Counted from the first letter of the stretch, positions 21,422 to 23,619 are shown. The stretch: 58,193 bases of DNA from a virus (IMGVR_UViG_3300045988_132327:1-58193), one strand, 5' to 3'. Translations and numbers: made by a program. The notes: generated by a model not told the origin, from the letters alone.

Positions 21422-21684
21422 CCTCTCACTCCATTATTTAACGAATAAAAAAGCTGCGGTGCCTGGTGCCTCCAGGTGACGTTAACCAGTTAACAATTAA
21501 CGCCGGGATGTTTGACTTAACTATTGAGGAAAATTGTTTTAACTGTTCCGCGTGCGCTTAGCCGCATTCACCGCAATGGTAAGAGCACTTGGCTGGCTGG
21601 GCGGCGATGACGCCTGTACGCATTTGGTGATCCGGTTCTGCTTCCGGCATTCGCTTAATTAGCCAAATACTCTTAACGTTGCGC

Positions 21685-21771
21685 TGGCGGAGAGTAATGG
21701 AATCGAACCATCATCGCTTGCGCAATGGGACGGTTTTCAAGACCGCTTGAGCACCATGCTCCCTACTCTCC
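21685..21771 (-). tRNA. atypical long-variable-arm tRNA, anticodon UGA (Ser-like); possibly degenerate
   Basis: hand fold: 7-8 bp acceptor, loop CTTGAAA, 17-nt variable arm, TTCGATT T-loop, CCA encoded; D-arm irregular. Confidence 0.4.
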
Positions 21772-22225
21772 CGTTATTGTGGCGACCGGTGCTGATCTCC
21801 GGCTTGCGGTTATTTCAGACTCTCACGGGCGTTTAATTGCCCCGCCGAACAGCTCTTTTCCGCAATAGCTGCAATGTCTTTCGCGCATCAGCCTGCGCAT
21901 TCACCACAATGTTGAGAACACTGGTTGTCACGCTGCAACGCAACATTTATTCGTAGATTGGGATATGACCCCGTTACGCCAGTGTTCTCAACGTTGTAGT
22001 GCCGGTTACGGTTCCGGCCAGGCCTCTTCCTCAACGGGGTGTTCTCCATACGGACTACCGTTTATTGGTCGTTCCTGCGGTTTATGTTGTGAAGCCAGAT
22101 GCTTATCTTCTGGTTGCTTCTAGGAGCTGCACTTCATCACAACGGTAAGGGTACTTCGTAGGGATTCGAACCCTCTGCCAAGCACGGCGATCTCCGACGT
22201 CGCAAAATACCCTTACCTGTTGTGT

Positions 22226-22301
22226 TGGTGCCGGTTAACGGACTCGAACCGCTGACATCCTGCTTACAAGGCAGGCGCTCTACCAACTGAGCTAAACCGG
22301 C
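22226..22301 (-). tRNA. tRNA-Thr(UGU)
   Basis: 76 nt, perfect acceptor stem GCCGGTT/AACCGGC, loop CTTGTAA, CCA encoded. Confidence 0.85.
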
Positions 22302-22303
22302 AT

Positions 22304-22380
22304 TGGCGATGGTGGGTGGATTCGAACCACCGACCGACAGCTTAGAAGGCTGCTGCTCTATCCTACTGAGCTACACCATC
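22304..22380 (-). tRNA. tRNA-Arg(UCU)
   Basis: 77 nt, perfect acceptor stem GATGGTG/CACCATC, loop CTTCTAA, CCA encoded; 2 nt from tRNA-Thr. Confidence 0.85.
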
Positions 22381-23447
22381 ACTTGCCGGTTACGTCTCCG
22401 GCGAGGGCTTCCACCTCCGTATGCTTTTCGGCGCACCGCGCCCTGGCTGCAATTCGGTAACAGGGGATGCACAACCCTGGCTTCCAGCGTGATTAGCGCC
22501 TTCAGCATGACGGGATATACCCGTAGTAGGATGTTATCCCAGAAAGCCATTAATCAATGGCTGTTACGCGGGAGGGACGTAACAGGTAAGGGCGCTGACC
22601 AGAAAGACCTGACCCTTCTCATTCATCTGGTTAATCACACCAGCGCCCTTGCCTGTTATGCCTCCCCGTTCCCTAATACACAGACGGGGACACTCTGCGG
22701 TCGATTTTTTGACGGGGGACGACTCATACCCCGTGGCGTCAGGCTTCTTAGGCCGCTACCATCATCAGATCATCGTTTGCATTTACTTTAATGGTCGGGT
22801 TCTAAACCGCCGCAAAGTCGCTAACCATGACGAAAACCCTAAAAAAGCCCACCCGAAGATGGGCAAATACGCTACATCTCACACAAGAAAGAAGCCGACT
22901 GCCTGAGCTGGATTCACTTTCAAATGCCCGCAGAAAGGGATCACAAGTCGGCTTCTTTCTTGATGCGGCACTCTCTCCGCCCGTCACCGCTCTGTCTCGG
23001 TTGTCGCGTTTGCCACGCCAGCCGTAACGAGGTTTAAAGTCTTTGCACGTTTCCATCACTCGACTGCCGTCTGTGGCTGTTCGTTGCAGCGGGGGTGCCT
23101 CCCCCTGGGGATATCCCCGGCCTTACCCCATTCTTTCAAGACACAATGCAAGGCCGCATCCGCATAGGTGCATTACCGCAACATTAAGGAGACTTAGGGC
23201 AAAAGGTAATCGCCACAAAAAAATCCCTATGCCTCCTTAATGTTGAGGATGTGCATTGATGATGATTCGATGCGGCGAGTCCCGTTACTCTCTGCCGGAC
23301 CATCATCAATGAACATCTTAAAAAGACCTTCCGTGGCTCAACATGTCTTGTTGTTTACTCCGTAAAGTGCTCTCTCTGAAACCACTTTACGCACTAAACC
23401 TGCTGAACTTTGGCTTGCTCGGTGCCAAAGCGAGTCCCTGTATGCAT

Positions 23448-23462
23448 GTAATTTTCTAACAC
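23448..23462 (-). promoter_or_regulatory. operator-like motif GTGTTAGAAAATTAC (reverse strand)
   Basis: in non-coding island downstream of 407-aa gene. Confidence 0.4.
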
Positions 23463-23603
23463 TTTAATTTGTTATTTGCTGGTGGGCGAACAACAACCAA
23501 TAAGTGACTATCAAGCCCAGCAAGCGAAATGTGGCAACGCTCCACCAGCAAGGAAAATTCTAAGTTAAGTTACTCTCACAATCAATATGTTCGTTTAATG
23601 AAA

Positions 23604-23618
23604 TTAGATTTCTAACAC
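23604..23618 (-). promoter_or_regulatory. operator-like motif GTGTTAGAAATCTAA (reverse strand)
   Basis: immediately after stop of 23620..24843. Confidence 0.4.
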
Positions 23619-23619
23619 A

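Follow-up and report, generated by a model that had tools for sequence, protein, structure and literature searches.

Results

The island and its neighborhood

The viral sequence IMGVR_UViG_3300045988_132327 (58,193 nt; hereafter the window, in which all positions are counted from the first letter) contains, between positions 21,422 and 23,619, an island of about 2.2 kb in which we find three tRNA genes, a family of paralogous hairpins that we named U hairpins, and a module, M, that resembles the tag template of transfer-messenger RNA (tmRNA). An earlier note on this DNA had described the island as gene poor and structure rich, and all the features that it listed are present, every one of them on the minus strand, as are all RNA features of the island (Table 1). 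Its statement that no ORF (open reading frame) longer than about 160 aa is free of these structures also holds; the longest ORF, of 162 aa, lies on the plus strand and runs antisense through both tRNA-Thr and tRNA-Arg. The note had not listed the U hairpin at 21562-21683, the hairpins at 23155-23322 and 23353-23399, the terminator-like hairpin at 22864-22847, or module M (22838-22668).

The window was assigned to a P1/D6-type phage-plasmid because it carries a C4 antisense RNA with a1/b1 target sites, which mark the immI region (35500-35706, minus strand; Rfam 71.9 and 52.2 bits), and because the segment 21300-23700 matches phage D6 and plasmids. Escherichia phage D6 is the best phage match to this segment (94.5% identity over 91% of the query); P1, P7, RCS47, and their relatives match about half of it. 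About 99 plasmids, nearly all predicted to be nonmobilizable, cover at least 80% of the segment, and related plasmids number about 1100 in total. The island is flanked by a pmgS-like gene (23620-24843) and by a 78-aa ORF (21185-21421) that is followed by an SPFH-domain gene.

P1 has the leader of its ban operon at the homologous place, annotated in the order promoter P1ban (Op72) with C1 operators, "dicF-like region," trnA (Asn), trnT (Thr), tciABC, trnI, and ban; the annotation puts two further small ORFs, upl and plp, on the other strand. Order and strand in the window are those of P1, and the two loci have in common tRNA-Thr, U hairpins, module M, a terminator-like hairpin, and an STnc100-like end. 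The window differs in that tRNA-Arg(UCU) replaces tRNA-Asn, a tRNA-Ser cassette is added, and the upstream 750 nt and the neighboring gene are of the D6 type (pmgS-like, where P1 has dmt); its operator motif also differs, and the P1 C1 consensus is unmatched. In the P1 record, both the hairpins and the tag module are without annotation. The locus as such is thus of a known kind, a P1 ban-type tRNA leader. The U-hairpin family and module M, which is apparently undescribed, are both absent from the sequence records, Rfam, and surveys that were consulted.

Table 1. Positions of the RNA features, regulatory motifs, and modules of the island, with the outlying hairpin U5
Feature	Position	Strand	Evidence or remark
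U5, minimal loop, outside the island	19905..19962	-	covariance model 45.9 bits, E = 1e-9
STnc100-like element, ends in a stem and U run	21455..21575	-	Rfam 41.7 bits, E = 5e-7; gathering score 47
U4	21562..21683	-	covariance model 46.7 bits; directly after the tRNA-Ser CCA
tRNA-Ser(UGA), type II, short D-loop, G73, encoded CCA	21685..21771	-	ARAGORN
Conserved "tail" module after U3	21772..21895	-	BLAST
U3	21895..21998	-	covariance model 49.6 bits; folding z = -7.3
Short conserved hairpin module	22085..22141	-	P22-like and Sasha-like phages, 80-85% identity (query positions 90-146)
U2	22128..22224	-	covariance model 62.8 bits
tRNA-Thr(UGU)	22226..22301	-	ARAGORN; Rfam 74.9 bits
tRNA-Arg(UCU)	22304..22380	-	ARAGORN; Rfam 72.1 bits
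Small leader hairpin GCCGGAGACGUAACCGGC before tRNA-Arg	22384..22409	-	repeat search, alignment
U1	22568..22660	-	covariance model 43.6 bits, E = 3.7e-9; folding z = -5.4
Module M: upstream hairpin, tag frame, two downstream helices	22668..22838	-	between the terminator-like hairpin and U1
Tag frame GCA AAC GAU GAU CUG AUG AUG GUA GCG GCC UAA (ANDDLMMVAA-stop)	22748..22780	-	
Intrinsic-terminator-like hairpin GCCCAUC-UUCG-GGUGGGC + U6	22841..22864 (stem 22864-22847)	-	also in P1; adjoins the upstream end of module M
Perfect 17-bp hairpin, D6-type specific	22884..22962	-	inverted-repeat search, folding
Three hairpins or imperfect palindromes, D6-type genomes only	23353-23399, 23243-23322, 23155-23269	-	z = -7.4, -4.1, -5.3
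Putative operator motif TARATTTCTAACAC, second copy	23449..23462	+	repeat search
Promoter-like site TTGATT-17-TAGAAT, sigma-70 type, pointing into the island	23557..23585	-	consensus match only
Putative operator motif TARATTTCTAACAC	23605..23618	+	upstream of the promoter-like site

A hairpin family with conserved arms and unrelated interiors

Several elements that the earlier note had listed separately, namely a tRNA-like remnant, a direct repeat, and the hairpins at 21911-21996 and 22581-22656, are members or parts of one paralogous family, the U hairpins. The structure taken for a remnant (22145-22216) is real, with a stem of 15 + 6 bp, a GGGTTCGAATCCC arm, and a folding z of -5.3, and it is the hairpin U2. 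The direct repeat is likewise genuine but occurs in three copies (21563, 21896, and 22129) and not two, and it constitutes the 3′ arm and tail of the hairpins. The two hairpins are confirmed, with z of -7.3 and -5.4, and none of 200 shuffled sequences folds as well; over the island as a whole, hairpins have z between -2.7 and -7.4 relative to shuffled sequence.

Read on the minus strand, a U hairpin opens with a 5′ arm of the form CACAACAGGUAAGRG and closes with the 3′ arm and tail AGUGCUCUUWCCRUUGYGGUGAA, the earlier note's direct repeat. The conserved stem is about 20 bp long (18-23) and contains a bulged A and one position that is usually unpaired. The interiors are hypervariable, span 20 to 95 nt, and fall into about 40 unrelated clusters; a T-arm is present in nine of the 40 clusters, some of which also have a D-arm-like hairpin. 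U2, which starts 2 nt past the CCA of tRNA-Thr and whose stem is perfect over 15 bp, has both, and together they form a cap that resembles a tRNA elbow.

A covariance model (R1) was built from an alignment of 40 units with unrelated interiors. The model scores each of the five window hairpins higher on the minus than on the plus strand (62.8 versus 37.3 bits for U2, 49.6 versus 32.1 for U3, 46.7 versus 20.6 for U4, 45.9 versus 14.5 for U5, and 43.6 versus 34.1 for U1); U5 was not in the training alignment. Over the 18-bp stem, 98.5% of the cells in the alignment pair, and nine pairs are changed on both sides. None of 500 shuffles reached the observed values, and slid controls paired in 35 to 62%. 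Comparative alignment, which the earlier note had suggested as a check on its hairpins, thus finds covariation in the U stems; the hairpin at 22884-22962, which it had also listed, is invariant among eight relatives, so that its covariation is uninformative either way. U5 lies about 185 nt downstream of a tRNA-Met/Ile2(CAU) gene (20147-20222) and upstream of a 191-aa ORF (19118-19693).

At gathering and at permissive thresholds, Rfam returned no family for the U hairpins, for the 65-nt core of the U4 interior, or for the 17-bp hairpin, and gave only microRNA and small nucleolar RNA noise. We also considered the bacterial Y RNA YrlA, since U2 and several of its relatives likewise carry a T-arm, sometimes with a D-arm-like hairpin, on a long stem. 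YrlA is defined by a stem with the Rsr-binding motif GNCGAA(N)G, by T and D stem-loops that are invariant, and by a neighboring rsr gene. This identity was rejected: the U arms lack the Rsr-binding motif, few of the interiors resemble tRNA, and the Rfam YrlA model had no match on U units and only a weak one on real tRNAs.

Distribution of U hairpins

A 3′-arm pattern found matches in at least 120 viral contigs, and when the 5′ arm was used as the key instead, the partner arm that emerged was the same. The two scans together yielded at least 151 units and at least 90 unique hairpins. Among the matches listed, every unit less than 300 nt from a tRNA lies on the tRNA strand (64 of 64), 31 of these 64 start within 15 nt of the tRNA 3′ end, and a T run precedes 36 of 143 unique units by at most 14 nt. 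On the same strand in these contigs, Q-like antiterminators or cI repressors are usually found upstream of the units and holins downstream; U units therefore sit in operon leaders.

Complete or partial U hairpins occur in lambda and in P22-like, rV5-like, N4-like, and Vi01-like phages, in every case in stretches without an annotated gene. The lambda hairpin lies directly after tR′ in the Q-S leader, that of Stx phages after a cI-like repressor, and that of an Edwardsiella phage after a repressor; others were found in Shuimuvirus-type siphoviruses, in the tRNA clusters of rV5 and Ackermannviridae, and in one N4-like phage. In Escherichia coli K-12, DLP12 has no U hairpin, and Qin has only a weak U-like match and the tail motif. 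In lambda, a second pairing is possible between the 3′ arm of the hairpin and CAGCACAAC further downstream, which would enclose the 65-nt core, and consecutive U arms can therefore form mutually exclusive stems.

Module M contains a start-less tag frame

About 200 phage records contain unannotated sequence with 72 to 84% identity to module M, those of Ackermannviridae, N4-like, T1-like, and lambdoid phages among them. A scan of a genome collection returned four matches only, and the module is therefore essentially phage borne. Its reading frame has no start codon: an invariant UAAAU followed by GCAAACGA stands ahead of ten codons, and an in-frame UAG lies eight codons upstream. Loci were counted as M loci when they shared the upstream motif, which also served to filter a loose scan of viral sequences for the tag motif, most of whose matches were due to chance. 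Exactly ten codons are present in 55 of 56 M loci, in 23 nucleotide versions that encode 14 peptide variants. All peptides start with AN[DE] and end with [AV]A or LAA; the tenth codon varies synonymously (GCC, GCT, or GCG), and the other two frames are closed at varying positions. The peptide of the window is that of P1 and D6; phiEa2809 has ANDNEFKVAA, PD205 has ANDDVVLMAA, and several viral contigs, one of which has tRNA-Met(cat)/tRNA-Arg(tct) upstream, have ANEEMYLAVA. One further homolog, in a viral contig, has a 14-codon tag, ANDNVAFEDMRLAA, which ends in LAA.

The SsrA tag of E. coli is ANDENYALAA. Like the tmRNA frame, that of module M is start-less, resumes on GCA, and closes with an ending of the hydrophobic-Ala-Ala type, and its tag (ANDD...VAA) is of the proteobacterial type. 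Local alignment with E. coli ssrA covers M from position -10 to just past the stop codon (score 27, versus 17 ± 2.7 for shuffles), and the Rfam model tmRNA_permuted aligns to the same region with 22.8 bits (E = 0.007; gathering score 47). The beta_tmRNA model reaches up to 20.9 bits on M against a gathering score of 84, and no Rfam tmRNA model attains its threshold. The helices after the stop codon covary, and the stop codon lies in a small hairpin loop. The module thus resembles SsrA, including the two-piece permuted, mycobacteriophage, and phage G forms, in its start-less tag frame, the bases at -5 and -4, and the stop codon in a hairpin. It differs in size, a unit of about 200 nt compared with about 360 nt for E. 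coli tmRNA, and in lying within a polycistronic leader.

In 40 of 51 unique contexts, a U 5′ arm starts 77 to 88 nt past the tag stop codon; U1 of the window does so at a fixed 87 nt. In nine lambdoid contexts, the core of a U 3′ arm also ends 49 to 53 nt upstream of UAAAU, so that M and its flanking arms form a unit of about 200 nt whose ends pair over 12 to 13 bp, with G·U as the third pair in seven of seven. This U·G wobble is kept in 79% of U units (88 of 112), and in 61 of the 112 (54%) the helix is followed by A. In the window, U1 has C-G in place of the wobble (G3-C70), and no U 3′ arm lies upstream.

These arrangements admit a reading that we put forward tentatively, as a possibility with the odds against it, in which many enterobacterial phages (P1/D6-like, lambdoid/Stx, T1-like, N4-like, and Vi01-like) carry a noncanonical tmRNA of about 200 nt with a helix made of the two halves of a U stem. 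The U arms would be the two sides of an acceptor-like helix, and M with its flanking arms a miniature, possibly permuted or two-piece tmRNA; tRNA-processing enzymes would excise the interior apically as an intervening sequence, and the RNA would be charged with alanine and append a phage-specified degradation tag to stalled proteins. Beyond the constant length, ends, and synonymous variation of the tag, the position of the stop codon, the covarying helices, and the spacing of the arms, several details favor such an RNA. Tag position 6 is Y, F, M, or V, as in ANDENYALAA, and the invariant UAAAU keeps U at -5 and A at -4 before the resume codon. The paired ends with a third G·U correspond to the arrangement of an alanine acceptor end, as do the retained wobble and the following A, and the 5′ side, CAGUGCU-CUUUCCA-GUUUUCGUC, can be set beside GGGGCUG-AUUCUG-GAUUCGACG of E. 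coli tmRNA. On the other side, a canonical tRNA-like domain is absent: the helix lacks an adjoining T-arm and an encoded CCA, and ARAGORN in tmRNA mode reported no tmRNA in 48 M-bearing loci. The C-G pair of U1 and the missing upstream arm recur in P1-type loci where U1 was found, and most U hairpins have no adjacent M. Moreover, in two exhaustive tmRNA surveys that include viral RefSeq, the phages listed with a copy are mycobacteriophages, Bacillus phage G, and DS6A, and no enterobacterial phage is among them.

Two observations touch on the tRNA-like domain. The N4-like phage PD205 has, about 160 nt ahead of its tag frame, a tRNA-like gene that ARAGORN calls tRNA-Ala(cgc) and the record a pseudo-tRNA; this gene could be relevant to the domain that M lacks. 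In P1-type genomes, the terminator-like hairpin next to M, which contains one G·U pair, is a possible permuted acceptor stem; it is not conserved in other M-bearing phages, and there is no T-arm upstream of it.

The island is a mosaic of cassettes with breakpoints at U arms

BLAST comparison of the island with P1, RCS47, Ro157c2YLVW, D6, and a related plasmid reveals colinear blocks that have been deleted, duplicated, and reordered. The mosaic breakpoints of the window relative to P1, RCS47, Ro157, and pAR0118 (21592, 21883-21909, and 22133-22155) fall at U 3′ arms. Single modules also move independently of one another. The tail module after U3 is duplicated in some P1-like genomes and is also present in Stx, Klebsiella, and Salmonella phages. 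The 65-nt core of the U4 interior (21596-21660) matches the lambda Q-S leader with 98.5% identity and the tRNA cluster of rV5 with about 88%; it lies just past the U hairpin in lambda and after tRNA-Ser in rV5-like phages.

The element at the downstream end of the island, which was found in every P1-like genome examined, adjoins the first ORF (78 aa, 21421-21185). It aligns to model positions 31 to 147 of 206 of STnc100/PasD (RF02076), a prophage-borne small RNA family, a partial match that misses the whole-model gathering score (41.7 versus 47 bits). Whereas STnc100 is a free-standing gene, the window element forms the untranslated 5′ region of the first ORF. Qin has a related sequence in its dicF-dicB spacer, which shares 79% identity with window positions 21575-21455 and starts with the same UGUGGUGAAUGCGG tail. 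The dicB operon (ydfABC-dicF-dicB), whose transcript is processed to the DicF small RNA, is a repressor-controlled prophage operon with a long noncoding stretch, comparable to the proposed operon of the island, and upstream of dicF it has the weak U-like hairpin (29.5 bits). Together, this hairpin and the spacer homology indicate that the K-12 dicB leader is built from the same set of modules. Qin differs from the window in having neither tRNAs nor module M, and the window has no DicF homolog: the DicF model (RF00039) matched neither the island (E ≤ 10) nor P1 (E ≤ 0.01), and the BLAST similarity is to the flanks of dicF. The "dicF-like region" of P1 accordingly matches sequence upstream of dicF and not DicF itself.

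tRNA genes

The three tRNA genes that the earlier note had proposed were all called by ARAGORN, the atypical type-II gene with anticodon UGA as tRNA-Ser(tga). Rfam confirmed tRNA-Thr and tRNA-Arg; tRNA-Ser had no RF00005 match at the gathering score, and its best match in the clan was to tRNA-Sec (43.5 bits, gathering score 47). It is sub-threshold on Rfam in D6, Cyrano, and rV5 as well. By inspection, tRNA-Ser has a cloverleaf with a 7-bp acceptor stem, a 4-bp D stem with a 5-nt loop, the anticodon loop CUUGAAA, a 6-bp variable arm with a GCAA loop, a GGUUCGAUUCC T arm, and an encoded GCCA end. D6, Cyrano, and the virulent phage rV5 have nearly the same gene, with differences in the variable arm and one acceptor G·U change. 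As far as sequence can tell, it is a real, unusual type-II tRNA.

The acceptor stem, most of the D stem, and the T arm of tRNA-Arg(UCU) are those of tRNA-Asn(GUU) of P1, D6, and RCS47. Relative to the P1 gene, the whole anticodon arm is different, and the D-loop has changed from GGUUA to GGAUA, which looks like the replacement of an anticodon arm by recombination. The small GCCGGAGACGUAACCGGC leader hairpin before tRNA-Arg has a paralogous copy at 22000-22025, before U3. The content of tRNAs varies among relatives, from Asn-Thr in P1 to Asn-Tyr-Thr in Ro157c2YLVW, Asn-Thr-Ser in Cyrano, and Arg-Thr...Ser in the window. In the long ORFs of the window, AGA occurs at 5.8, ACA at 17.6, UCA at 14.0, and AUA at 12.6 per thousand codons, two to three times their usage in E. 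coli. The three island tRNAs would read A-ending codons that the phage uses heavily (AGA, ACA, and UCA), which fits a role in codon supply.

Upstream region, promoter-like site, and operator motif

The sigma-70 promoter-like site at the upstream end of the island is the only one found in 20000-25000, and it is flanked by two copies of the 14-nt motif TARATTTCTAACAC. Ten copies are present in the window (at 867, 12817, 14040, 14218, 23449, 23605, 24854, 25897, 35800, and 37002), compared with 0.8 expected. One of them, at 35800, is upstream of the c4 RNA, at a place that in P1 is occupied by a C1 operator. No match to the consensus of the P1 operator is present in the window. Synteny with the P1 ban leader agrees with a putative C1-controlled early operon, and a different, over-represented motif stands in the expected places; TARATTTCTAACAC is likely the operator of a D6-type C1 repressor and would mark its regulon.

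The 750 nt upstream of 22868 are specific to D6-type genomes and variable, with differences at 195 of 758 positions among eight relatives. In these relatives a few pairs in 23155-23269 covary and many predicted pairs in the hairpins of 23155-23399 break, so we do not claim these hairpins as conserved structures; none matches the U-hairpin covariance model. The hairpin at 22884-22962 contains the perfect 17-bp inverted repeat that the earlier note had reported; folded jointly with the adjacent terminator-like hairpin, it has z = -3.7. It was rejected as a U hairpin (E = 9 on the covariance model).

Discussion

A proposed processed and exchangeable leader

We consider it somewhat more likely than not (roughly 0.55) that the island, about 2.2 kb long and read on the minus strand, is the untranslated leader of an early operon under repressor control in a P1/D6-type phage-plasmid and corresponds to the ban leader of P1, with cassettes that are punctuated by U hairpins serving as RNase III-type processing sites and as sites of exchange. 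Given the observed anatomy, homology, strand bias, covariation, and mosaic breakpoints, the leader would work as follows. A polycistronic precursor would start at or upstream of the promoter-like site at 23585-23557, under control of the repressor, and would contain three tRNAs, the tag-template module, several noncoding modules, and a terminal element like STnc100 and the dicB leader. In the RNA, the U stems would be double-strand processing sites at which the precursor is cut, most likely by RNase III, into stable and potentially active pieces, and the same cuts would free the 3′ sides of the tRNAs. In the DNA, the conserved U arms would provide homology for the swapping of cassettes between phages. 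The earlier note had raised a processed polycistronic tRNA/noncoding RNA locus as one of two possibilities. This idea fits the synteny with the P1 ban leader, the common orientation of the RNAs, and the modules held in common with the Qin dicF-dicB transcript, and the processing itself is what we infer.

Cleavage of the U stems by RNase III is probable on several grounds. With 18 to 23 bp, they provide about two turns of double-stranded RNA, as an RNase III site does, and in the lambda PR′-S leader the U hairpin is the only long local hairpin besides tR′. Q-dependent lambda late RNA reportedly has in vivo RNase III processing sites, according to the title of a study by Daniels et al. of 1988. 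DicF of Qin is reported to be made by RNase III and RNase E processing. The RNase III hairpins of phages, such as the early R sites of T7 and the late-leader sites of lambda, are likewise paralogous hairpins of about 20 bp with irregularities that lie between transcript units. The U hairpins, whose cleavage is predicted, have arms that are conserved across phage families and enclose a hypervariable interior, which is not known as a property of RNase III sites. Another parallel is provided by the stable RNAs C and D of T4, which are non-tRNA structured RNAs cotranscribed and coprocessed with the phage tRNAs; in contrast to the U hairpins, these are single-copy RNAs and not a repeated conserved stem with variable content.

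Several observations weigh against this model. Both U arms are conserved in sequence far beyond what a generic RNase III substrate needs, the U·G wobble is retained, and one stem position is unpaired in 29 of 40 units; such strong conservation of arms, bulge, mismatch, and wobble suggests a specific partner beyond RNase III alone. The assignment of the lambda RNase III sites to the U hairpin is our inference, and the lambda RefSeq record contains no RNase III feature. Most of the island is separated from the promoter-like site by the terminator-like hairpin at 22864-22847, and read-through must therefore be assumed; this hairpin implies attenuation or a separate short transcript. The D6-type island also follows the late-type gene pmgS and not dmt, and transcription may therefore also come from further upstream. 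The promoter, the role of the operator motif, and any cleavage are all predictions from sequence.

Alternative explanations

Apart from the tmRNA reading discussed with module M, the inverted repeats might act in the DNA, as the ends of small mobile elements or as folded recombination sites of the attC kind, with RNA structure as a by-product. Conserved arms around a variable center, a bulged base, and an unpaired position do recall the layout of an attC site. The sequence of the outer 6 bp is ...AAC/GTT..., breakpoints of the mosaic fall at the arms, and copies occur across unrelated phages. We nevertheless judge this improbable. The uniform orientation to tRNAs among the matches listed and the better model scores on the transcribed strand point to RNA, and the conserved U·G wobble would turn into an A·C mismatch on the opposite strand. 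Copies of one mobile element would have homologous interiors, which the U hairpins do not. As an integron attC site or small mobile element in the strict sense, the hairpin was rejected because, in addition to the strand bias and the interiors, the arms CACAAC...GTTGTG misfit the RYYYAAC/GTTRRRY boxes. No dedicated recombinase or integrase was seen beside U units in the sampled contexts.

The other possibility raised in the earlier note, a decayed tRNA array in which hairpins and T-loop fragment are dead tRNA genes drifting neutrally, is mostly wrong and has little chance of accounting for the island. Some tRNA ancestry or mimicry is real, since T-arms and D-arm-like hairpins recur among the interior clusters; the same small leader hairpin precedes both tRNA-Arg and U3, and the tRNA content varies among relatives. 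However, the hairpins belong to a stem family whose 18 to 22 bp are kept, with compensatory changes, in phage families that otherwise share nothing, and near-perfect stems with a fixed bulge and a fixed mismatch are unexpected under neutral decay. The interiors are also unrelated to one another.

We give equally little weight to the view that the U 3′ arm is a boxA-type loading site for Nus factors (UGCUCUUU) that confers resistance to Rho across a long untranslated leader. The rrn boxA sequence is UGCUCUUUAACAA, and 10 of 11 bases match around it; untranslated leaders are where Rho would act, and a small boxB-like hairpin often precedes the unit. The motif is nonetheless sequestered in a stem, members such as U2 and U3 lose it through compensatory changes, so that pairing and not the motif is conserved, and the lambda copy lies downstream of Q-modified transcription, which needs no boxA.

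Finally, coding on the plus strand is very improbable: P1 and RCS47 annotate Upl and Plp and the plp frame is 96% identical in the window, but there this frame (21878-22255) is interrupted by a TAG at 22121, runs antisense through U3, U2, and tRNA-Thr with a Cys/Ser-rich translation, and has nothing called in its place in the D6 and RefSeq plasmid annotations, and plp and upl are probably not genes.

Implications of the modular leader

With the processed, exchangeable leader as the preferred reading, the consequences concern annotation as well as phage biology. P1 and lambda have been studied heavily, yet the region is annotated with only tRNAs, two doubtful ORFs, and a "dicF-like" label. A start-less tag frame of the tmRNA type under apparent constraint at the peptide level suggests that phages interfere with, or supplement, ribosome rescue. 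If the tmRNA reading were true, these phages would run their own trans-translation with their own degradation tag, and the U stem would be a general "cut here" signal for assembling and exchanging RNA cassettes. As markers of cassette exchange sites, the U arms explain why close relatives differ in tRNA content, including the swap of an Asn for an Arg anticodon arm.

The long annotation gaps of many enterobacterial phages have a set of RNA modules in common, joined by one conserved stem, and this offers a handle for annotating them. The Ackermannviridae phages T751, phiEa2809, and PS5 have stretches of several kilobases without an annotated gene beside their tRNAs; all three contain module M, and, apart from the PS5 locus, at which none was found, these stretches also carry U hairpins.

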